Below the pieces are notes generated by a model. The model saw only the letters and a program-made list of their open reading frames with translations. It did no database searches and was not told the DNA's origin. From the IMG/VR virus record IMGVR_UViG_3300045988_054881: a DNA stretch of 33,689 nt. The stretch is one strand, 5' to 3'. Positions 12,398-33,689 of the stretch are shown one piece after another (position 1 is the first letter of the stretch; each line of letters begins with the position of its first letter). A program made the translations under genes and the position numbers. The stretch is from a virus.

Positions 12398-13017
12398 TAG
12401 ATACCTCCTAGCTTCTTTAAGTTGTCGACGGCCTCAGCTGACAGTACGTTCACCTGCATGGCTTTCGTGCCTGCTTCTTTACCGTTGGACGTTACATCCT
12501 TCAAGTCGCGAAGGCCTCGAAGTTTTGCCATATAGGTAGCGTCTACCATTCCAGCTAGCGCGCTTTCGTCCATCTCGGTTGTGATCAACTCTTTTATGAG
12601 GCAATAACCTAGATATAAGTTCTCGGCATCCGGGTTCCCATCGGCTGCAAGCTTTTCAAGCTTTTCCATATTCTTGTTGAAATCCTTGATACTCCATCCG
12701 ATAAACAGGCAGAACCCACCGACGGAAGGTGCGCGCTTCTTATCAATAGGAATTTTCTCACCTGCCATGTTGCCGCCCTTCATTACCTCGTATGAGATAA
12801 ACGGGTTCGCCTCACAGAAGTTCATATACTCGGCAACGTAATCTATACACTCATCAATAGTGTTCAGCGTTGCGCCCTTAACGCCTCGTACCTGCATCAC
12901 CTCGTAAAGTTGTGAGCATTTAGCAATACTGGGTTTAGGCGTTGGCGCCTTTCCGGTCGCCTGCCCTTTTATGATACCCGCTTTAGTTTCGGGCTCTGAT
13001 TTTCTTTTTCCGGCCAT
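12397..13017 (-). CDS. terS: Terminase small subunit (putative).
   Basis: Lies immediately upstream of and overlapping terL. 'APSVGGFCLFIGWSIKDF' resembles the HTH segment of small terminases. I chose the ATG at 13017 ('MAGKRKSEPE'); the ORF-track start at 13062 is a TTG codon. Confidence 0.6.
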   Translation of the reverse strand: MAGKRKSEPETKAGIIKGQATGKAPTPKPSIAKCSQLYEVMQVRGVKGATLNTIDECIDYVAEYMNFCEANPFISYEVMKGGNMAGEKIPIDKKRAPSVGGFCLFIGWSIKDFNKNMEKLEKLAADGNPDAENLYLGYCLIKELITTEMDESALAGMVDATYMAKLRGLRDLKDVTSNGKEAGTKAMQVNVLSAEAVDNLKKLGGI

Positions 13018-13106: not shown

Positions 13107-13138
13107 CAAAAGTACACCGCCAATCCGGCATATACAAA
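13107..13138 (-). promoter_or_regulatory. Canonical Bacteroidota promoter for the late (packaging/structural/lysis) unit.
   Basis: On the minus strand, TTTG (13138-13135), then 20 nt, then TACTTTTG (13114-13107). This matches the TTTG-N19-21-TAnnTTTG consensus and lies ~90 nt upstream of the terS ATG. Confidence 0.6.
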
Positions 13139-13314: not shown

Positions 13315-13701
13315 TGTGACAAACTAAAAAAGTCAGTAACCACTTTTGTAACCACTTTTGTCACAGCTAATCACCTGATCTATTGCAAATTACGCGCTTT
13401 TCACAAGTATGTGACAAAGAAAACGCCTCAAACACTTCCAACAGGAAATATATAGGTATATTGCTATCTCTACATAGCAATATATTCTCTTTTCTAATAT
13501 AAGTGTTAGGGCTATTTTATATACTTACTGTAACACATATATATAAATAATTGATATAGAGGTAGTTAGCTGTGACAAAAGTGGTTACTATCCTGTGACA
13601 TCAACATTTTTCCTTTTTGTTATTTCTACTGATTATCAATTAGTTAGGTGTGACAAAGGAAAAACGCTATACTGATTATCAGCAGGTTAAGTGTGACAAA
13701 C
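13315..13701. promoter_or_regulatory. Non-coding module A. It holds 7 TGTGACA sites, a 23-bp perfect inverted repeat, a conserved hairpin, an AT-rich tract and 42-nt-period direct repeats.
   Basis: No ORF of 60 aa or more falls between 13328 and 13907. Motif coordinates are given in the findings. A stretch of 183 nt is colinear with 29965-30163. Confidence 0.75.
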
Positions 13702-13814
13702 TTTTAGGCACGTAAAATTAATTACTGTGAATTTTTTACTTTTTCTCCTTTTCGAGCGGTACGCCCGCAATCGACTTTTTGAAAGATTTGTCGACGCACC
13801 GAAAATATAAAACA

Positions 13815-13854
13815 AAAGTGCTAATCTGACATTTTGCAATCAAATTAGCACTTT
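13815..13854 (-). terminator. Putative terminator ending the early unit.
   Basis: An 11-bp stem, 'aaagtgctaat' (13815-25) pairing with 'attagcacttt' (13844-54), encloses an 18-nt loop. On the minus strand it is followed by 'tgttttatatttt'. Confidence 0.45.
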
Positions 13855-13907
13855 TTGCTATCACCTTTAAATAGAACACCCTATTCGTAAAAGGCACTAT
13901 CATTTTA

Positions 13908-15953: not shown

Positions 15954-15981
15954 ATTAATTACTGTTTTTAATTTGATACTG

Positions 15982-16035
15982 CAAATATAACTCATTTAGA
16001 GATACGTTGTTTCTTTTGTTAACGTTATTTAAGAA
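15982..16035 (-). promoter_or_regulatory. Phage promoter cassette copy 1 (drives the small-domain array).
   Basis: The minus strand reads CTTAAATAAC-GTTAAC-N8-CAACGTAT-N12-TATATTTG, followed by the leader 'CAAATTAAAAAC'. The cassette overlaps the SNF2 stop codon. Confidence 0.65.
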
Positions 16036-17416
16036 CTTTGTATTTCTCCATAAGTTCTTTGATACTTTGCATTAACCCGTCCTGCGTTTCCTTCTTTTCG
16101 GAAAGCGCTTTGATTATCTTCTCGTCTACCGTACCCTTGCTTACTATGTGATGGATATACACAGGCTTTGTTTGTCCCTGCCTATATAGGCGTGCATTAA
16201 ACTGCATGTACAACTCGAGGCTCCACGTGTTACCAAACCACACAAGTATGTTACCACCTTTTTGAAGGTTAAGACCGTGCCCGGCTGATGCTGGATGCGT
16301 TACAAGCACTTGTATCTTGCCATTGTTCCATTGGGCTATGTGCTCGGGCTTTTCCAACTTCACGGGCTTATAAGCTTTCAAGGCGTCCATGATCCTATCA
16401 AGGTCGTGAATGAAGGAATACGCCACGAGAACAGGGGCACCGTTTGCCGCCTCTACAATTTCCTGCAACTTCTCTAGCTTCTCGTCATGGATATGCTTGA
16501 CATTGCGGTCGGCATCATATATGGCACCGTTGGCATACTGTTGAAGCTTATTGCTTAACGCGGCTGCGGATGCTGCGGTTATCATTTCGTCGGAGCTGAT
16601 CAACTCTAAAACCTGTTCCCGTTCAAAGTCCAAGTAGTTATCATATACTTTGTCGGAAAGTTCTACAGTATCGAACAACATGATCTTATCCGGCATCTTT
16701 AAATAGTCTTCGGCGGTCATGGATATGGTTATATCACTTATAAGGTCACTGATCTGCTTTTCCGTCTCGTCTGCGGGCTGTTTGAGTGCATAGGTATAAA
16801 CTATATCACCGTTACGCTTATCTGGGCGGAAAAACCTATCTCTGTAGCCCGTAATTGTTTTGCCCAACCGTTCCCCTTCGTCAATCAAGTACATCTGTGC
16901 AAACAGATCAATAAGCCCGTTGGGCGATGGCGTTCCAGTCAGTCCTACCACACGAGGAATAAACTTCCGGACACGTTTCATTGCCCGGAACCTTTTAGAC
17001 GCATGGTTTTTAAAGCTTGATAGCTCGTCAATAACCACCATATCAAAAGGTAATTTTATACCGCCATATTCCGTGACTAACCAAACAATGTTATCCCGGC
17101 TGACCGCATAAATATCTGCCTTCTTTGCCATCGCTGCCCTTCGGTGTTTAACGTCTCCATCTATAACAGAAATGGTTAGGTCTTGCAGGTGCGCCCAGTT
17201 CTTTATCTCGTCAGTCCAAGTTACTTGTGTAACCTTCTTCGGAGCGACAACTAGAGCGTTCGTAATTATACAGGCATCCATAAGTTCTTTGATGGCTGTC
17301 AATGTCGTAACGGTCTTCCCTAGCCCCATGTCTAGGAATAAGGCACAGAATGGGTTGTCGATAATATGCTGAACACCTCTGTTCTGATAACTATGTAATT
17401 GGTTTCTTTGTAACAT
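16025..17416 (-). CDS. SNF2/Rad54-family helicase.
   Basis: Motif I 'DMGLGKT', motif II 'VVIDELS', motif III 'LTGTPSPN', and C-terminal 'GHGLNLQ' and 'NARLYRQGQ'. 463 aa. Confidence 0.9.
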   Translation of the reverse strand: MLQRNQLHSYQNRGVQHIIDNPFCALFLDMGLGKTVTTLTAIKELMDACIITNALVVAPKKVTQVTWTDEIKNWAHLQDLTISVIDGDVKHRRAAMAKKADIYAVSRDNIVWLVTEYGGIKLPFDMVVIDELSSFKNHASKRFRAMKRVRKFIPRVVGLTGTPSPNGLIDLFAQMYLIDEGERLGKTITGYRDRFFRPDKRNGDIVYTYALKQPADETEKQISDLISDITISMTAEDYLKMPDKIMLFDTVELSDKVYDNYLDFEREQVLELISSDEMITAASAAALSNKLQQYANGAIYDADRNVKHIHDEKLEKLQEIVEAANGAPVLVAYSFIHDLDRIMDALKAYKPVKLEKPEHIAQWNNGKIQVLVTHPASAGHGLNLQKGGNILVWFGNTWSLELYMQFNARLYRQGQTKPVYIHHIVSKGTVDEKIIKALSEKKETQDGLMQSIKELMEKYKVLK

Positions 17417-19799: not shown

Positions 19800-19926
19800 A
19801 ACTTAAATTTTAATAGTTTATAAAAAGAAGCCCGGTTATAAAATCCCTTTCACTTTTTTATATTTCCCTTTCGGGTTTCCTGTTTGCGGTTTCGGTGGCA
19901 AACAACCTTGCTTCGTTTTGGTATTG

Positions 19927-19980
19927 CAAATATAAGGGTTATTCTGATACGTTGTATATTTCGTTAACACTATTTAAGAA
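19927..19980 (-). promoter_or_regulatory. Phage promoter cassette copy (drives the lipoprotein gene), followed by a ~125-nt leader.
   Basis: The minus strand reads CTTAAATAGT-GTTAAC-N8-CAACGTAT-N12-TATATTTG. Confidence 0.65.
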
Positions 19981-20014
19981 TAAACCCTTATATTGCTTTT
20001 CTGTTAACAAGTCG

Positions 20015-22450
20015 TTAACTTTTAGCCTTTCGTACATACCCTCTTTGTTGTCCGTGAGCCTTGCAACGTCTTACACCCCTTTCCCATCCCGGCATACGGT
20101 TAAGCACGCCTGTTATGTCTGCGGCATCGGTACGTTTGATCTTTCCTATCTCGAGATCCAGTGCCTCAACTAAAACAGCGGGAGCGCTTACAAAGTCCAT
20201 GAGCATACACTTTTCCTTGTCTACCTCGTCTTCGTCATAATTGGCATAGTACATTTTCCGTTCCAGTTGGTTCATTTTATCCCAACACAAAGGTACATAC
20301 ATATCCACGTATTTCTGAATGGCAGATGTTCGCGGATCAGCTTCATAGTGTTCTTCCCTTCCGGCCTCAGCAATCATTTCAGCTTCCGGGCTTAATAACG
20401 TGCTGACCTTCCGATAGTACATCTGCACTGCTTCCGCCCAAAGTTGATCTATGTAATCGTCGAAAGCGGGCTCAAAGATAAGATGTGTGTTCGGGTTAAC
20501 CTTACATCTCACCGGAAGGAAACGCCTGCCGCCTGTTGCGTCTTTCAGAAACTCGTCCTTATTAGTTGTGCCTATGAAAACACACTGCCGCGGAAAGTTC
20601 TTTGTAACACGTCCGTAGGCAGGTCTGAAACTGTCCTCTGTCTTCGTTATGAAGTTTTTCACTAGCTCTACCTCAGCTTTTTTCATGGCTGATAGTTCGC
20701 CTACTTCAATAATCCAACTTCCCTGTAGCTGTTCAAAAGCCCGTGTTCCTTCCATTGAAATTAAACTGTCGGAAAACCAATTCTTGCCTAGCTTTTTGCA
20801 CAGTGTACTTTTTCCGGTGCCTTGATCAGCCACCATAACGAGCATACTGTCGAACTTGCATCCCTTCTGAAAGATACGCTTAACGGCACCTACAAGCATT
20901 ATCCGAAAAGCTTCCCGGGTATATATATTGTCCTCGGCACCCATTATATCAATAAGCACTGTATCTACGCGCGGCACTCCATCCCACACAAGGCCCGTTA
21001 GGTAACTTTGCACAGGGTGGAACGAGTTATGTTCAGCCGACAACGCAATGGCATCATCTATCTTTGCACTACTGTTTATCCCGTACATGTCTTCAATATG
21101 TTTGCGGACACCGGAAAAGTCAACGTCTTGAAAGTCGCTAGTGTTATCTTTCGGGCGCCAGATAGGAACACGTGTTACAACGCGTCTTTCCTTAAACAAG
21201 TCTCTAGCTATCAAACCTTTTAAGGCGGGATCATGCTGCATTATCAACCCTAGGTTCTTTGCGCTAGGCAGATAAGCACCTCGTTTATCGGTTTCTAGCC
21301 CGGCCATTGCATCCGTGTACTCTTCTGTTATGGCTTCCACGTCCGTTACTTCCGGCACTTCGTCGCTATATAGCTCCTCGAAATCGTCCACAATTGCAGC
21401 CGCTTTTGCCGTTAACCGGGTGGCCCTTGCTGCTGCTACCTTCTCATCCTTGTTAACTAGTTCAGACATGGCACCCATTGAAGGGCGCTTGTCCTGTCCC
21501 TTATCCATCTTTCCGAACAGGTGAACACGAACTAGGTCGAAAGCGTTGAATACATGGTTTCCTTGTATGGGATCATTGTTATGGAATGAATAAGCAAACA
21601 TATCGTCAAACGTCAGCATGCCACCGGACGTTGATCCGCCTGTGTAAGTCCATCGGTCTTCTTTATCTGTCGGCTCGTACACTTTCGGAAGATACTTTTC
21701 TATCGCTTCCGATATGGTGTACGCCCGGCAGAAATCGCCTACAATACCATCTTTCAGTGTAGGGTTCTGCTGTTCCTTCACTAGGTTGCGTGCTTCTCCT
21801 TTTTCGTCCTTGTGGTACGCCCATTCGGTTACATCGCGCCAATTCTCGTAATACCCCAGATACTTTTGAACGTCTAGTGTTTCCTCGTTCAGTTGGGAAA
21901 AGTCCACGAAATCAAAGTCTACATCTCGGGACACGGACGGGTAGAACATACAGCGTTCGGGTTGGAACGTGGTACGGTCGTACAAGTCAATACCTGTTAA
22001 CTCGGCTACTTTACGGGCAATCGCCTCATATTGTTCGCTGTCTACAGGCTCAGACAAGGGAATGATAACCCGATAACGGTAAACGTTCGCTTTCGGGTTA
22101 TGCTTGTGCGTGCCATGAATAATGCAGGCGCAATTAATAATGCCGTAAAACTTATCCGGGAAATCAGACTCTCCGAAATCTATGTCAAGAGCCAATAACG
22201 AGCGCTCACCGACGTTGTTCTTATTCCGCCTGTTACCGAATAGTTCGCCACCCATGAAGGCGCCAACGTCCTTAATGTTTCCCTGTTCGGTTTTGCTCGC
22301 ACTAATAAATTCACGATAGGTTTCCTCTGTAACTTTCGCCGACGTGAACTTTTCCACCAACTGCGCCCATGTAAATGACTTGTTTTTCCAAGCCGTTGAC
22401 TTCGCGTTGGTGGCGGTGGCAATCTTAAAAACCATTTTAGATAGTTCCAT
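20015..22450 (-). CDS. Primase-helicase (N-terminal primase-like domain plus a VirE/D5-type P-loop helicase).
   Basis: 'LALDIDFGE' provides an acidic catalytic-type motif. Walker A is 'ADQGTGKST'. 'ATGGRRFLPV' is the VirE-family signature. 811 aa. Confidence 0.8.
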   Translation of the reverse strand: MELSKMVFKIATATNAKSTAWKNKSFTWAQLVEKFTSAKVTEETYREFISASKTEQGNIKDVGAFMGGELFGNRRNKNNVGERSLLALDIDFGESDFPDKFYGIINCACIIHGTHKHNPKANVYRYRVIIPLSEPVDSEQYEAIARKVAELTGIDLYDRTTFQPERCMFYPSVSRDVDFDFVDFSQLNEETLDVQKYLGYYENWRDVTEWAYHKDEKGEARNLVKEQQNPTLKDGIVGDFCRAYTISEAIEKYLPKVYEPTDKEDRWTYTGGSTSGGMLTFDDMFAYSFHNNDPIQGNHVFNAFDLVRVHLFGKMDKGQDKRPSMGAMSELVNKDEKVAAARATRLTAKAAAIVDDFEELYSDEVPEVTDVEAITEEYTDAMAGLETDKRGAYLPSAKNLGLIMQHDPALKGLIARDLFKERRVVTRVPIWRPKDNTSDFQDVDFSGVRKHIEDMYGINSSAKIDDAIALSAEHNSFHPVQSYLTGLVWDGVPRVDTVLIDIMGAEDNIYTREAFRIMLVGAVKRIFQKGCKFDSMLVMVADQGTGKSTLCKKLGKNWFSDSLISMEGTRAFEQLQGSWIIEVGELSAMKKAEVELVKNFITKTEDSFRPAYGRVTKNFPRQCVFIGTTNKDEFLKDATGGRRFLPVRCKVNPNTHLIFEPAFDDYIDQLWAEAVQMYYRKVSTLLSPEAEMIAEAGREEHYEADPRTSAIQKYVDMYVPLCWDKMNQLERKMYYANYDEDEVDKEKCMLMDFVSAPAVLVEALDLEIGKIKRTDAADITGVLNRMPGWERGVRRCKAHGQQRGYVRKAKS

Positions 22451-26260: not shown

Positions 26261-26326
26261 AACGTTTTATACTTTTTGTTTTTGGCCTCTATACGGTTCA
26301 GCCTTTCCGTTTTTAATTTGATGTTG

Positions 26327-26368
26327 CAAAGATAACAATAAAATCAATACGTTGGTTCTTTTGTTAGC
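26327..26368 (-). promoter_or_regulatory. Phage promoter cassette copy (drives the SSB gene).
   Basis: The minus strand reads GCTAAC-N8-CAACGTAT-N12-TATCTTTG, followed by the leader 'CAAATTAAAAACG'. Confidence 0.65.
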
Positions 26369-26373
26369 ATCTT

Positions 26374-27546
26374 TTATATTTTCTCGAATAAATCAAGCGT
26401 TGGCACTATTGCTTCCCGTGGATCATCTTCCAAAGCTAGAGTAGGCGCGCCTGCGGGCTTTTTGATAACGTCTTTCAGTGTTGCCGCAAATGGCTTTTTG
26501 CCTACCATCTTTTCAAGATCACCGATACCTTTCAGCTTGTGATTTTTTAGATCATCCTCAGCAAACCCTAGTCCGGTTAATAGTTCGATTGCTTTCGCTT
26601 CGTCTGATATAACCCGGACGCTTCGCCCTTCTACTAATTTCCATCCCGGCACGGTTTTTCCTTCTAGAGCTGACTTCATGGCATGTTCTTTGATAGACGA
26701 TAACCAACTGGTGAACATATCGGACTTTTTTAGCAACTCCCCTATCTCGTCTAGGGTTAGGGTGTTTGTATCGCCATGAGTTTCAAATTCAGATACTAGA
26801 GCATCCTTCTGCGCACGGCAAAGAGGTTTATGCTTGCAGAACTTGCAGTGTGATCCGGTGACACACTCACCTTCACCCTTAAAAGCTTTTTCAGCCACCG
26901 GACGCAACGTGTGGATAGCCCAATGCGTTAAATCTCGTGCAGGCATCTCGAAGGTAGGGAAGTGACCTAATCTAACTTGTGCGATATGCATACGTACTGT
27001 TTCTATTTCCGCCTGCCTTTTTGGAGGAAGTGACCGAAGGACGCCTAACGCATACATCATAAGTTGCGAATTATTTACAGCCTCTACCTTAACGCCTTTT
27101 CCGTACTTCAAGTCTATAATATCAAGCACCTTTTCCGATACTATATCGCAGTCACAACTGCCCGAACATTCCGGGACGTACATAGATAGATCAAACTTCC
27201 TCTCTAATCCCATTGTAGCGCCTTCTTTTACCTCGAAAAGATCACAGACATAGCAAACGTAATCCGTTACATACTTATCCATCTCAGGGTCGTAATAAGG
27301 GCTGCTTTTGATGTTTTCCGGTGTCGGAAGGTTATCAAGAAGCGGCATGTAGTTTCCGGCTAGATACTCAGTCAACGCATATTCGGCTAACTCGTGGGCG
27401 GTTGTTCCTTCCTCAGCCGCTGAACTGCTTGTTTCCTCGTAACTCTCTTCCAATCTTGCCGACGGTGTACAAGTCATCCACCGTTTTGATCCGGATGGAG
27501 AGAGTAGGGAATGTGCTCTCTCCGTGTGGTTTATTGTTTCTGACAC
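26374..27546 (-). CDS. PD-(D/E)XK nuclease with a C-terminal Cys cluster (DUF2800/Cas4-like).
   Basis: 'LLSPSGSKRWMTCTPS' at the N-terminus, 'DIIDLKYGKGVKVEAVNNSQLMMYALG' as the D..D.K core, and 'CKFCKHKPLC'. The start codon is GTG at 27546. Confidence 0.8.
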   Translation of the reverse strand: MSETINHTERAHSLLSPSGSKRWMTCTPSARLEESYEETSSSAAEEGTTAHELAEYALTEYLAGNYMPLLDNLPTPENIKSSPYYDPEMDKYVTDYVCYVCDLFEVKEGATMGLERKFDLSMYVPECSGSCDCDIVSEKVLDIIDLKYGKGVKVEAVNNSQLMMYALGVLRSLPPKRQAEIETVRMHIAQVRLGHFPTFEMPARDLTHWAIHTLRPVAEKAFKGEGECVTGSHCKFCKHKPLCRAQKDALVSEFETHGDTNTLTLDEIGELLKKSDMFTSWLSSIKEHAMKSALEGKTVPGWKLVEGRSVRVISDEAKAIELLTGLGFAEDDLKNHKLKGIGDLEKMVGKKPFAATLKDVIKKPAGAPTLALEDDPREAIVPTLDLFEKI

Positions 27547-27547
27547 A

Positions 27548-28036
27548 TTAGTCCTTGTAAGTGATTAGACGTTGTTTCAACAAAGCAAACTTTGCAGGCG
27601 CAATTTTCATTAAAGAAGTACCGCCAAACTCATGGAAAATACTCATGATCTCGTCTCTAGTGAGCTTGCCGGACTTGGATAGAGAAATAACTAAATCCTG
27701 CATTTCCTTCGTGGTCGGTTGTTCGTCCGTGCTCGTTTCAGTTTCCGGTGCAGGTTCAACTACAGGTTCCGGTGCAGGTTCAACTACAGGTGCAGGTTCA
27801 ACTACATGTTCCGGTGCGGGTGCTGCTTTCCCTGCTTTTACCTTTCTTGGTGCTTTCTCTGTAACGGGTACAGCGGCTATTTCCTTGACCTCTACAGGAC
27901 TTTCTACCTTTAGTTGTGCGGTTGTGTCACATGGGATATTAGAACTCAAATTTGCGCCCGAAATAACGCTTTTCACAAATTCCACCTCGTGCAAGTTGCT
28001 TGCATCGAAATCCAACTCAAAAACTTTAATTTTCAT
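27548..28036 (-). CDS. Hypothetical early protein with a Pro/Glu/Val-rich repeat linker.
   Basis: 'APEHVVEPAPVVEPAPEPVVEPAPETE' is encoded by 18-24-nt tandem repeats at ~27742-27820. I chose the ATG at 28036 ('MKIKVFELDF'); the ORF-track start at 28048 is a TTG codon. Confidence 0.5.
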   Translation of the reverse strand: MKIKVFELDFDASNLHEVEFVKSVISGANLSSNIPCDTTAQLKVESPVEVKEIAAVPVTEKAPRKVKAGKAAPAPEHVVEPAPVVEPAPEPVVEPAPETETSTDEQPTTKEMQDLVISLSKSGKLTRDEIMSIFHEFGGTSLMKIAPAKFALLKQRLITYKD

Positions 28037-28057
28037 ACGATTTTTCAATTTATATAA

Positions 28058-28325: not shown

Positions 28326-28526
28326 TTATCCGTTTTTACATGCTCTTTTTAGAGCGATTAGGTCTTTAACTTTCGGGTTATCCGAATTTTTGGTAGCGTC
28401 GATAAGTGTCATATCTGTAACGGTAGCGTACCAACACTTGCTAGTTACCGGACTCTCAAAACATACACGATAAGCACCGTGTCCGATAAGCCTAAACGAA
28501 AAGTCATAAATACTAATTCTCTTCAT
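28326..28526 (-). CDS. Small early protein, paralog of 29513..29758.
   Basis: 66 aa. The shared pattern is 'IS..DF.F...G...Y.V...SP.....W...V....LI.....NS..P...DL.AL...CKNG'. Confidence 0.55.
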   Translation of the reverse strand: MKRISIYDFSFRLIGHGAYRVCFESPVTSKCWYATVTDMTLIDATKNSDNPKVKDLIALKRACKNG

Positions 28527-28553
28527 AATTTCTACTTTTTAATTGTTATGGTA

Positions 28554-28607
28554 CAAAGACAAGGAATAAAACAATACGTTGTTCTTTTTGTTAACGTAAT
28601 TTAAGAA
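28554..28607 (-). promoter_or_regulatory. Phage promoter cassette copy.
   Basis: The minus strand reads CTTAAATTAC-GTTAAC-N8-CAACGTAT-N12-TGTCTTTG, followed by the leader 'ACAATTAAAAAG'. The upstream gene's TAA stop lies inside GTTAAC. Confidence 0.6.
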
Positions 28608-29106
28608 AGTTGTTTTTCTGAATTTTGTCAATCCATGCTTTAGGAACGATAGGGAGCGTGTCTATATACTGCTTGATATAAACCTTGCGCCCGTTTGAAT
28701 CGAAGGAATACCAACCTACGTTGCTATACTTGAAAAAAGACCTATAATCTTTGTTTAGCTTAACAACCTTACTGACTATATCGTTCACATCCACTTTCCC
28801 TACACAACCAGACTGTGCTAAATCAGATGCTTTCTTGATAAGTAGTAAGGCTTCCAAAAAGCACGGGTTGTCTCTCAAATAAACCAAGCATTCCTGCGTA
28901 TAGTGGGACGTGTCGCATAGGTCTACGGGTTTAGCTTTTTTCGATGCGCGTTTCAGTAACTCTTCGGTCATCTCTGCGGGGAAAACATACCGCCCGTTAT
29001 TGGGGAGATTTACCCGTACGATGACGGTTCCTGTTTTGGTGGAATCCATTAATTCCGGTGACACAATAATGTCGGCAATCTGATTTTTTAAACTTCTAGC
29101 TTTCAT
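28591..29106 (-). CDS. Hypothetical early protein.
   Basis: 171 aa with an ATG start and its own cassette promoter. Confidence 0.5.
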   Translation of the reverse strand: MKARSLKNQIADIIVSPELMDSTKTGTVIVRVNLPNNGRYVFPAEMTEELLKRASKKAKPVDLCDTSHYTQECLVYLRDNPCFLEALLLIKKASDLAQSGCVGKVDVNDIVSKVVKLNKDYRSFFKYSNVGWYSFDSNGRKVYIKQYIDTLPIVPKAWIDKIQKNNFLKLR

Positions 29107-29140
29107 AACGTTTACTTTTTGCTTTTTAATTTTGATACTA

Positions 29141-29194
29141 CAAAGATACGTATTATTCCGATACGTTGGTTATTTTGTTAACCTTATTTAAGAA
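29141..29194 (-). promoter_or_regulatory. Phage promoter cassette copy.
   Basis: The minus strand reads CTTAAATAAG-GTTAAC-N8-CAACGTAT-N12-TATCTTTG, followed by the leader 'CAAAATTAAAAAG'. Confidence 0.65.
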
Positions 29195-29395
29195 AATAGC
29201 CTCCATTAGCGGTTGTAAGAACTTGTAGGACTCTCCGTTAAATTGATAAGATTCTATTTTCCCTCTAAAGCGCACCTCTGAAAAAGAAGTGTTATACTCG
29301 TTACCTTTGTCATCCACATATACGAGTATGTGATTGATGATAATAAAGTCACCATCTGTTAGGTGTCCGGCATTGATACAATTTATTGCTCTCAT
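29153..29395 (-). CDS. Hypothetical small early protein.
   Basis: 80 aa with an ATG start. Its 3' end is encoded by the next promoter cassette. Confidence 0.45.
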   Translation of the reverse strand: MRAINCINAGHLTDGDFIIINHILVYVDDKGNEYNTSFSEVRFRGKIESYQFNGESYKFLQPLMEAIFLNKVNKITNVSE

Positions 29396-29465
29396 ACGAT
29401 TTTTTCCGACTAGTGCCTCGGTGGCCTTCCGCTAGGTGAAACAACGTGTTTCCCTTTCTGCTCTG

Positions 29466-29520
29466 CAAAGATATGGATAAAAACAATACGTTGTACATTT
29501 CGTTAACACTAATTAATAAT
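29466..29520 (-). promoter_or_regulatory. Phage promoter cassette copy with a ~70-nt GC-rich leader.
   Basis: The minus strand reads GTTAAC-N8-CAACGTAT-N12-TATCTTTG. Confidence 0.6.
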
Positions 29521-29758
29521 TTAGTGTTTTAATCGTTATTGAACCCTTATCGCTATATCCGTTCTTGCAAACGAAAAACAAGGCTTTTAAGTCTCTAGCT
29601 CTAGGACTATTAGAATTCATAACGGACTCTATGAGAGAAACGTTGCTGACGTGTTGACGCCATACCCGGCCCGATAGAGGGCTTTTATATTCTACTAGAT
29701 ATTTTCTACAACCCAATGAGGTGAACTCGAAATCGTGAACGCTGATTTTTGTTGCCAT
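29513..29758 (-). CDS. First early gene. A small protein, paralog of 28326..28526.
   Basis: 81 aa. 'ISVHDFEFTSLGCRKYLVEYKSPLSGRVWRQHVSNVSLIESVMNSNSPRARDLKALFFVCKNG'. Confidence 0.55.
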   Translation of the reverse strand: MATKISVHDFEFTSLGCRKYLVEYKSPLSGRVWRQHVSNVSLIESVMNSNSPRARDLKALFFVCKNGYSDKGSITIKTLNY

Positions 29759-29785
29759 TTGAATTACTTTTTAATTGTTATGCTG

Positions 29786-29840
29786 CAAAGGTAGGAAAAG
29801 ATATGGTATGTTATACATTTCGTTATGTTACATTAACACT
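29786..29840 (-). promoter_or_regulatory. Degenerate cassette-type promoter of the first early gene, overlapped by an operator-like palindrome.
   Basis: The -7 box TACCTTTG (29786-29793) is followed by the leader 'ACAATTAAAAAG'. The upstream boxes are altered (CATAAC / TAACATAC) but keep the same N8/N12 spacing. Confidence 0.55.
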
Positions 29841-30234
29841 TTTGTGCGTGTAACAGCTAAATTGTTGCATATCAAGGCATTATAAAAACGTGTGACAGAT
29901 TCAAATGTTATAGTAACATAAATGTAACACTGTAAGTTGTTGTAGGTCTGTGGGTTACTAGCGCTGTGACAAAAACACGCCTAAAATTCCCTTATACTTT
30001 TATTTCGTTGTTTTGCAATTTATACCCCTATATTGTAATCTCTGATATTACAATAATCTATTTTCTCGAATAAGTATAGGGCTATTTTTATATATTTGCT
30101 GTAACAGATATAGTTAAGTAGTTGTAATAGAGCAAGTTAGCTGTGACAAAAGTGGTTACTATCTCAAATGTTAATGTAACATAATCTCATAAGTTATTAT
30201 AAATGAGCTGTTTAACTGTGACAACGGTGTGACA
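29825..30234. promoter_or_regulatory. Non-coding module B. It holds 5 TGTGACA sites, 3 ATGTTA-N3-TAACA(T/C) palindromes, a conserved hairpin and the 29-nt core shared with module A.
   Basis: No ORF of 60 aa or more falls between 29759 and 30287. Coordinates are given in the findings. Confidence 0.75.
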
Positions 30235-30240
30235 GTCCTA

Positions 30241-30279
30241 AACGAAAACAGGGAAGCACCATTTTTGGCACCTCCCTGT
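30241..30279 (-). terminator. Terminator ending the late unit, specific to the minus strand.
   Basis: A 14-bp stem pairs 30248-61 with 30266-79. Three positions are G-U pairs in the minus-strand RNA but A-C mismatches in the plus sense. It is followed by 'uuucguuu' and lies 9 nt after the stop at 30288. Confidence 0.65.
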
Positions 30280-33395: not shown

Positions 33396-33689
33396 TTAGT
33401 TAAGTTGCACAAATTGTTCCGCGTATGCCGGGTTTTCTTTGATAAGACGCTCGGCAATCTCGTCCGTCATGTTGGCGGCTTTATAGATAACGCCGTCCGC
33501 ATAATGTACGATACGTGCGCCTGGTTTCATAGCCCATTTGTAAACCTGCCCGGTCAGATACTTTGACTGATACCAAAGTTCTACAAACTCCATGTCCATG
33601 TGACAGTTGTAATCCAGTTTTAAACCTGTATACTCAAAATACTTGTCTACCTTTTCTTTCAAAGTATTCAGTACAGGTATTTCTGTACC
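33396..33689 (-). CDS. 3' part of the junction-spanning tandem-repeat protein gene (see 1..205).
   Basis: The frame is open to the end of the window. The 'M' at 33662 in the ORF track is an internal TTG codon. Stop TAA at 33396-33398. Confidence 0.65.
   Translation of the reverse strand, partial: GTEIPVLNTLKEKVDKYFEYTGLKLDYNCHMDMEFVELWYQSKYLTGQVYKWAMKPGARIVHYADGVIYKAANMTDEIAERLIKENPAYAEQFVQLN

Follow-up and report, generated by a model that had tools for sequence, protein, structure and literature searches.

The window analysed here, a stretch of 33,689 nt (IMG/VR virus record IMGVR_UViG_3300045988_054881), is a circular, circularly permuted assembly of 33,634 bp in which positions 1–55 recur as 33635–33689, and the phage that it represents belongs to the Bacteroides-type siphoviruses of the human gut. 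This genome has two large intergenic regions only (regions A and B), and each is occupied by a copy of the same non-coding module, one at the head of the late operon (copy A) and the other at the head of the early operon (copy B). What is this module for, and which protein reads it? Each module is probably an iteron-type replication-origin element, which would give the genome two of them, and the short words repeated in it (TGTCACA in the window) are very likely the binding sites of the phage's own primase-helicase. Both statements rest on sequence comparison, the latter on covariation and homology. A first-pass annotation had pointed to the combination of iterons, an AT-rich tract and a hairpin as the classical architecture of an origin, and this suggestion is now favoured by covariation between the word and the predicted C-terminal wing of the primase-helicase, and by the homology of this protein to the Rep proteins of staphylococcal pathogenicity islands (SaPIs).

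Structure and conservation of the module

The 29-nt core described earlier as perfectly identical in the two copies is exactly so; the near-opposed placement of the copies (16,571 bp apart on the 33,634-bp circle) and their non-coding location, each between a terminator and a host-type promoter, have likewise been confirmed. The colinear alignment that had been drawn over the whole module holds in part. A repeat finder recovers a direct repeat of 111 nt with 79% identity at the same spacing (13482–13592 and 30053–30163), whereas the outer parts (13410–13481 and 29965–30052) are of low identity and colinear by landmarks alone, namely a TGTGACAAA..ACGCC box and a hairpin in matching positions. 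Region A also has, 183 nt from the A core, an inverted copy of the core that is absent from the first-pass annotation. The stems of the hairpins in copies A and B differ at two positions on both arms in a compensatory manner, and therefore self-complementarity, not sequence, is kept in them.

The word is found seven times in region A and five times in region B (Table 1). TGTGACA occurs 16 times in the genome against 3.5 expected, with 12 of the 16 in the two intergenic regions, where all nine genome copies of TTGTCACA (1.1 expected) are also located. Two TGTCACA words stand on one side of the AT-rich tract of the window, a variant inverted word stands on the other side, and more iterons follow beyond. 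Where copy A has the variant TGTAACA, the relatives L161 and L142 carry an inverted TGTGACA. At the place of the two ~43-nt repeat units of region A, L142, L161 and L136 have 'TGTCACGGATAACTnATTGAGATACAG', with inverted copies downstream. L136, although TGTAACA is its main word, keeps GTCACGGATAAC as the word of these units, and the units are therefore possibly a site for a second protein.

Megablast gives only patchy matches of ~76%, to siphoviruses of 33–36 kb isolated on Bacteroides uniformis and B. xylanisolvens, and shorter matches are found in phages of Parabacteroides and Phocaeicola. Gene order is the same in the relatives, to which the proteins are 33–86% (mostly 50–86%) identical. 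A contig of 33,651 nt from a human gut metagenome (L162; ENA ERZ916273, run ERR321572) matches the window with 100% identity along the 22.4 kb that were fetched, and is therefore the same phage genome assembled independently from a human gut sample. The clade relative L161 originates from a Human Microbiome Project sample, and its primase-helicase open reading frame (ORF) is split (644 + 141 aa).

All ten GenBank relatives fetched have the same two large intergenic regions with a homologous module in both. A scan of IMG/VR with a conserved piece of the module yields 51 loci on ~37 contigs, many with two copies. A second IMG/VR set comprises 69 further loci, taken 10 kb either side of the primase-helicase gene, in which the helicase is 98% to 58% identical to that of phage BU1-1; most of ~70 IMG/VR loci carry the module, and the contigs that do so span primase-helicase identities from 97% to 58%. 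On the gene strand, the layout that is kept begins with the word, an A-rich spacer, the inverted word and a second inverted word with CTAACT, and it continues with ~30 nt of AT-rich sequence, one or two opposed words, a purine-rich stretch, a hairpin or repeat region and more words. The flanked arrangement is clearest in relatives that have two copies of CTGTGCAG, ~30 nt of AT-rich sequence and two copies of TGCACAG.

The first-pass annotation had proposed to look for both the 29-mer and the module in relatives. An exact search with a 21-nt core among viral contigs gives no match, and a search with a 19-nt core in metagenome and genome collections gives chance matches in unrelated sequence only. 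The 29-mer is therefore lineage-specific, whereas the module and both of its positions are kept family-wide. A B-specific spacer variant (…CAACTACTTA…) is common to copy B of the window and copy B of EMB1-like phages, so that the duplication must be old and both copies have been maintained; A-specific and B-specific variants are shared across clades. Upstream of the terminase gene, L124 (IMG/VR contig 3300045988_021627) has at 12532–12996 a 17-copy tandem array (ATACCGG/ATCCCGG/ACTATCC) that is absent from the other genomes. A literature search on the isolates found one genome announcement only, and no published account of how these phages start replication was found.

Word switching and the primase-helicase

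Between close relatives the spacers of the module are kept while the word itself switches. At least nine word types are found: TGCACAG in most BU-like phages, TGACCAG in BU183P1 and three contigs, GACACAG in three contigs, TTACACAG in seven contigs, TGGCACAG in a 76% clade, TGGAACA in L131, TGTAACA in L136 and L137, TGTCACA in the window, L142 and L161, and GTTCCGACA in L148 and L149. In every genome examined, the word of copy A is also that of copy B. Words that switch, yet are common to both copies, are the signature of sites for a phage-encoded sequence-specific protein whose specificity has repeatedly changed.

Covariation with the word was tested in ~45 ortholog alignments from a closely related group with recombination-shuffled genes, by counting the columns in which a minority word class is set apart without exception from every other genome. 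The test is informative because of the gene mosaicism among the GenBank relatives. Only in the primase-helicase does each of the three minority word classes have separating columns, namely columns 489 and 805 for TGACCAG (n = 4), 807 and 808 for GACACAG (n = 2) and 804 for TTACACAG (n = 7). Columns 804–808 form one patch ~15 residues from the C-terminus (GWQR-A-[xxxx-x]-V-GIGR), and column 489 lies apart. There is no separating column in the well-sampled families of PolA, both exonucleases, the protein binding single-stranded DNA (SSB) and the SNF2 helicase, nor in those encoded between the helicase gene and the modules, so that the association of word and helicase is not explained by linkage. 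The remaining separating hits are single columns, or belong to families with two or three class members only. When the primase-helicase is compared with that of BU183P1 alone, no clear signal is seen; it becomes clear only with more genomes.

Other candidates for the word-binding protein have been rejected on the same count. The small terminase has no separating column for any word class, and the first early proteins, also well sampled, have none. The same is true of an early protein of 201 aa, which has 166 aa in the window and, at 33–48% identity to relatives, has diverged more than any other conserved early protein. A Pfam search among 19 small early/middle proteins found no helix-turn-helix regulator. 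In BU1-1, BU183P1, BU241P1, BU2-1/2, BX788P2 and BU730P1, genes of an HNH endonuclease and a DNA methyltransferase are variably inserted between the replication genes; both are absent from the window.

The C-terminal patch reads ANGK-T with the word TGCACAG, AGRR-A with TGACCAG, ANARPV with GACACAG, and ADAK-S, AEAR-P or AEAK-A with TTACACAG. The variants AKAK, ARQI and AGQK are found in genomes with the words ATGCACAG and TGTACAG/TACACAG. In other clades the corresponding residues are VRR with TGTCACA (window, L142, L161), TRR with TGTAACA (L136, L137), RQR with TGGCACA (ten loci) and RRR with TGGAACA (L131). Many other C-terminal residues differ between the window and L142 while VRR is common to both, and L136 and L137 likewise share TRR.

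The N-terminal half of the primase-helicase is a primase by PHROGs, its VapE-like domain is matched by Pfam with E = 1.4e-76, and its best match in PDB is the SaPI Rep initiator-helicase (7PDS, E = 1.6e-76, query residues 396–735). In an AlphaFold model of the last 150 residues, with a mean predicted local distance difference test score (pLDDT) of 60, V793-R794 is placed in the first strand of a β-hairpin; the best fold matches of this low-confidence model are the chains of 7PDS, followed by winged-helix domains including those of Orc1/Cdc6. Neither a DnaB-type helicase nor a loader was found in the window, where the fused VapE-like primase-helicase is the sole candidate for the replicative helicase. 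For recombination this phage has an SSB of the annealing type, two exonucleases and a protein homologous to the VRR-NUC nuclease of the relatives.

Probable origin function and other explanations

If the modules are origins, the predicted winged-helix domain at the C-terminus of the primase-helicase would read the word, presumably through contacts of the wing, and the helicase would load itself at the iterons without a separate loader, by analogy with SaPI Rep. Hexamers might then form to either side of the AT-rich tract, which they would melt, and the fused N-terminal primase part would start synthesis. Both modules might fire, or one might fire while the other serves as a second high-affinity site. 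Such a second site might stall the fork and switch replication to concatemer synthesis like oriR of phage SPP1, or might play a role like that of crr in phage P4, and the SSB, the exonucleases and the VRR-NUC homologue could process the stalled fork. A more elaborate and rather doubtful proposal is that the modules are not redundant origins but form a functional pair opposed on the circle, one being the origin and the other a helicase-held fork barrier or second loading site that switches circle-to-circle to concatemer synthesis, that their occupancy also couples the early-to-late transcription switch to replication, and that the wing/word pairs amount to a recognition code. The coupling would follow from the placement of the modules, immediately upstream of the promoters of the early and late units.

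Several observations weigh against origin function or against reading of the word by the helicase. GC skew has a uniform bias with no inflection at either module, and neither supports nor locates an origin. The modules are 6–10 kb from the helicase gene, whereas the SaPI origin is immediately downstream of rep. In the most distant clades (L143–L146, L155) a clear word cluster was not found. The AlphaFold model of the C-terminus, which ends in a strand-helix-helix-β-hairpin arrangement, is of low confidence and was built on a 7-sequence alignment, and the GACACAG class comprises two helicase sequences only. Within the TGCACAG class the wing varies (ANGK, AKAK, ARQI, AGQK) with only subtle differences in the word, such as a flanking base or TACACAG/TGTACAG, and thus the code between wing and word is not one-to-one. 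Helicase binding at the modules could also serve regulation, not initiation.

The last point leads to the view that the modules are purely regulatory operator arrays, at which a phage protein, possibly the primase-helicase, represses the early and/or activates the late promoter while replication starts elsewhere. It would agree with the location of the modules directly upstream of the first early and late host-type promoters and with the lack of an origin signal in the GC skew, and iteron-binding initiators commonly autoregulate. The Bacteroides -7 boxes (TAnnTTTG), however, are downstream of each module at a distance of 170–480 nt, and the modules do not overlie them. Among the early proteins neither a helix-turn-helix regulator nor one of another type was detected, the only protein co-varying with the word is the primase-helicase, and an AT-rich tract between opposed words is the origin layout of the homologous SaPI Reps. 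A purely regulatory function is thus unlikely, and the shared regulatory switch that the first-pass annotation had offered beside the origin has lost ground, no co-varying regulator having been found; helicase binding may have a secondary regulatory role beside origin function. The small-RNA template offered at the same time has found no support either: the module has no internal promoter and no Rfam match and contains words in both orientations. In its wider form, as a cis-acting RNA element or small-RNA gene such as a nut/put-like antitermination site heading each operon, this explanation draws on the position between a terminator and the next operon, which is like that of lambda nutL/nutR, and on significant hairpins with compensatory differences between A and B. 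It is nevertheless very improbable: a conserved promoter is lacking both within the module and upstream of it, the -7 boxes being downstream, the structure of the central region is not conserved across relatives, and the words co-vary with the predicted DNA-binding wing of the helicase. A search of the whole window with Rfam 15 gave zero matches at the gathering thresholds, and at relaxed thresholds only chance-level hits to eukaryotic microRNA and small nucleolar RNA.

Recognition by the small terminase, that is, a packaging site (pac or cos), is suggested by copy A, which is immediately upstream of the small-terminase gene in a common pac location. There is very little to be expected of it, because cutting at two equivalent sites that lie half a genome from each other would yield half-genomes, and because the small terminase is 96–99% identical between BU183P1, with TGACCAG, and phages of the TGCACAG class and has no class-separating column. 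A direct terminal repeat was also considered, as the BU2-2 record starts and ends in module B, at boundaries that looked as if they coincided with landmarks of the module. The two ends overlap by exactly 141 nt, a length shared with four other records, and the end in the module is therefore an assembler k-mer artefact; the end overlaps of other records are 127 or 55 nt. The least credible explanation is a selfish miniature inverted-repeat transposable element that has been inserted twice and has the core as its terminal inverted repeats. The core of copy A does form an inverted repeat around ~183 nt, but both syntenic positions are occupied in every relative examined, the ancient A-specific and B-specific variants are shared across clades, and the 19-nt and 21-nt cores have only chance matches in metagenome and genome collections and none in viral contigs, respectively. 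Origin function, probably with the primase-helicase as initiator, remains the preferred explanation of the two modules.

Neighbouring features and comparison with known systems

All real genes of the window are on the minus strand. The early/replication block runs in gene direction from 29758 down to 13908 and includes the genes of a Cas4-like exonuclease, a Gp2.5-like SSB, a metallophosphatase exonuclease, PolA, the 811-aa primase-helicase and the SNF2 helicase. The late block begins with the small and large terminase genes and continues round the circle, with tail, capsid, portal and lysis genes, as far as 30288.

Table 1. Features of the two intergenic regions and of the primase-helicase gene (window coordinates).
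Feature	Position	Strand	Basis or remark
Module copy A, heads late (terminase/structural) operon	13410–13592	-	homologous modules in relatives
Module copy B, heads early (replication) operon	29965–30163	-	homologous modules in relatives
29-nt core, copy A; holds best iteron TTTGTCACAGCTAACT, with GATAGTAACCAC before it	13564–13592	-	exact match to copy B core
29-nt core, copy B	30135–30163	-	exact match to copy A core
Inverted core copy, region A; adjoins tandem GTAACCACTTTT x2	13348–13376	+	complementary 27/29 to 13560–13588, 23/23 to B core
Degenerate inverted core copy, region B, approximate limits	29835–29862	+	alignment and eye
Iteron TTGTCACA, region A	13315–13322	-	word count
Iteron TTGTCACA, region A; the TGTGACAAA..ACGCC box of the first-pass annotation	13410–13417	-	word count
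Iteron TGTCACA, 11–12 nt from core iteron; tandem pair left of AT-rich tract	13594–13600	-	word count
Two ~43-nt repeat units with one iteron each (TTTGTCACACyTAAC...TGATAATCAG); iterons 13649–13656, 13692–13699	13627–13700	-	repeat finder, word count
Iteron TGTCACA, region B	29891–29897	-	word count
Iteron TTGTCACA, region B, box with ACGCC	29965–29972	-	word count
Two tandem TGTCACA iterons 11 nt apart, region B	30217–30234	-	word count
Variant word TGTAACA, other side of AT-rich tract, opposed to core iteron, copy A	13529–13535	+	sequence
Variant word TGTAACA, other side of AT-rich tract, copy B	30100–30106	+	sequence
AT-rich least-stable duplex tract, module A, candidate DNA-unwinding element	13498–13557	.	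2nd least stable 60-nt window in genome
AT-rich low-stability tract, module B	30036–30095	.	6th least stable 60-nt window in genome
Hairpin, copy A, 11-bp stem TATATTGCTAT/ATAGCAATATA	13457–13484	-	z = -5.8 vs shuffled sequence
Hairpin, copy B, equivalent position, 9-bp stem TATTGTAAT/ATTACAATA	30031–30055	-	z = -4.2 vs shuffled sequence
Primase-helicase, 811 aa; VapE-like SF3 helicase at residues 484–702, predicted C-terminal winged-helix domain; proposed iteron-binding initiator	20015–22450	-	
Codons of predicted C-terminal wing β-hairpin GWERGVRRCKAHGQQRGYVR, residues 788–807; word-covarying position V793-R794	20030–20089	-	
Terminator-like hairpin, end of early/replication unit	13814–13855	-	upstream of copy A
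Terminator hairpin (30249–30278) and T-run, end of late unit	30241–30278	-	read from sequence; upstream of copy B
Bacteroides-type -7 box TACTTTTG, late promoter, ahead of small-terminase gene	13107–13114	-	homologous to TACCTTTGTGCC in relatives
Bacteroides-type -7 box TACCTTTG, first early promoter	29786–29793	-	~170 nt downstream of copy B

The terminator-like hairpin upstream of copy A is the sole part of region A that BLAST matches in relatives (78–85% identity). Its stem changes are compensatory (AGTGCTAAT.. vs AGCCCAAAT..) and its loop TT[A/G]CAAAATG is kept, which suggests that it is more than a plain terminator; a 55-aa ORF (13736–13903) that overlaps it is probably not a gene. Seven repeats of ~80 nt precede early/middle genes on the minus strand (15954–16036, 19900–19981, 26299–26381, 28526–28608, 29113–29195, 29438–29520 and 29758–29840). 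On the gene strand they consist of 'TTCTTAAATAACGTTAACAAAAGAAACAACGTAT', ~15 nt and TAnnTTTGCAG, in which a Bacteroides-type -7 box is preceded by a conserved element, and the family is likely to be a shared early/middle promoter with a regulator site; its box is also found in the distant relative L013 (8565–8625). Within the 166-aa early ORF (27548–28048), a 12-nt periodic repeat at 27725–27820 encodes a low-complexity linker. Three tandem 39-nt repeats (92–100% identical) at 42–158 are apparently in-frame 13-residue repeats within a late coding region, which extends across the assembly junction. The window contains no tRNA gene.

If the preferred assignment of the modules as origins is correct, the origins would be located for a whole family of gut phages, the 33–36 kb siphoviruses with Bacteroides, Phocaeicola and Parabacteroides hosts. 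SaPI-type self-loading initiator-helicases would then also work in lytic-type phages of a different phylum, with the origin unlinked and duplicated. There would also be a natural series of at least nine pairings of a DNA word with wing residues, by which the specificity of a winged-helix initiator becomes directly testable and possibly re-programmable. Possible uses are replicating vectors for Bacteroides and an understanding of cross-interference between co-infecting relatives.

Among known systems the SaPIs are the closest. SaPI Reps, as studied with Rep1 and PriRep5, are self-loading helicases whose C-terminal winged-helix domain recognises short iterons, and their binding to and melting of the origin need no ATP (PMC9371898). 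In their origins 6–12 iterons surround an AT-rich centre, two or more on each side and oppositely directed (PMC9371898), and this layout is found here as well, most clearly in the relatives. The helicase core of the window protein is homologous to that of SaPI Rep and its C-terminal domain is predicted to be winged-helix-like; primase and helicase are fused as in PriRep5. In both systems short words specific to the element stand opposed on either side of an AT-rich tract, and specificity differs between related elements. On the other hand, the SaPIs have one origin directly downstream of rep, whereas the two modules here are at ~13.5 kb and ~30 kb with the gene at 20015–22450. The SaPI iterons are 5–6 nt long and the words here, which are predicted sites, are 7–9 nt. 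The setting of the modules differs as well, in that they occupy both large intergenic regions of a siphovirus of lytic type from Bacteroidota.

In SPP1, two origins of similar organisation, with repeats and an AT-rich part, share a single initiator, which binds to each of them (PMC6316719). Replication begins at oriL, and according to a published proposal the initiator on oriR stalls the fork and so brings about the change to concatemer synthesis (PMC6316719, PMC3485210). The two modules resemble oriL and oriR as two separated similar regions of one genome, one of them late, and covariation suggests a single recogniser here too. The SPP1 initiator gp38, however, is a separate origin-binder that needs the loader gp39 and the DnaB-type helicase gp40, whereas the binder here would be the helicase itself, and oriL is inside gene 38 while both modules are intergenic.

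The α protein of P4 unites a primase, an SF3-type helicase and a C-terminal winged-helix origin-binding domain in one polypeptide, and binds the same iteron in ori and crr, which are ~4.5 kb apart and both needed in cis. Its primase and helicase belong to families unlike the VapE-like protein of the window, with which no sequence match was found, and ori and crr are not diametrically opposed at operon heads. Iteron plasmids of the RepA/π/TrfA type also have repeated initiator words beside an AT-rich unwinding element, with co-evolution of initiator and iteron; their Reps, in contrast, are not helicases but recruit the host DnaA/DnaB, and their iterons are direct repeats of 17–22 bp. Collectively, iteron origins are already known, and what is probably new here, as far as sequence comparison tells, is a SaPI-type initiator-helicase with an unlinked and duplicated origin and with natural specificity switches in gut Bacteroidota phages.

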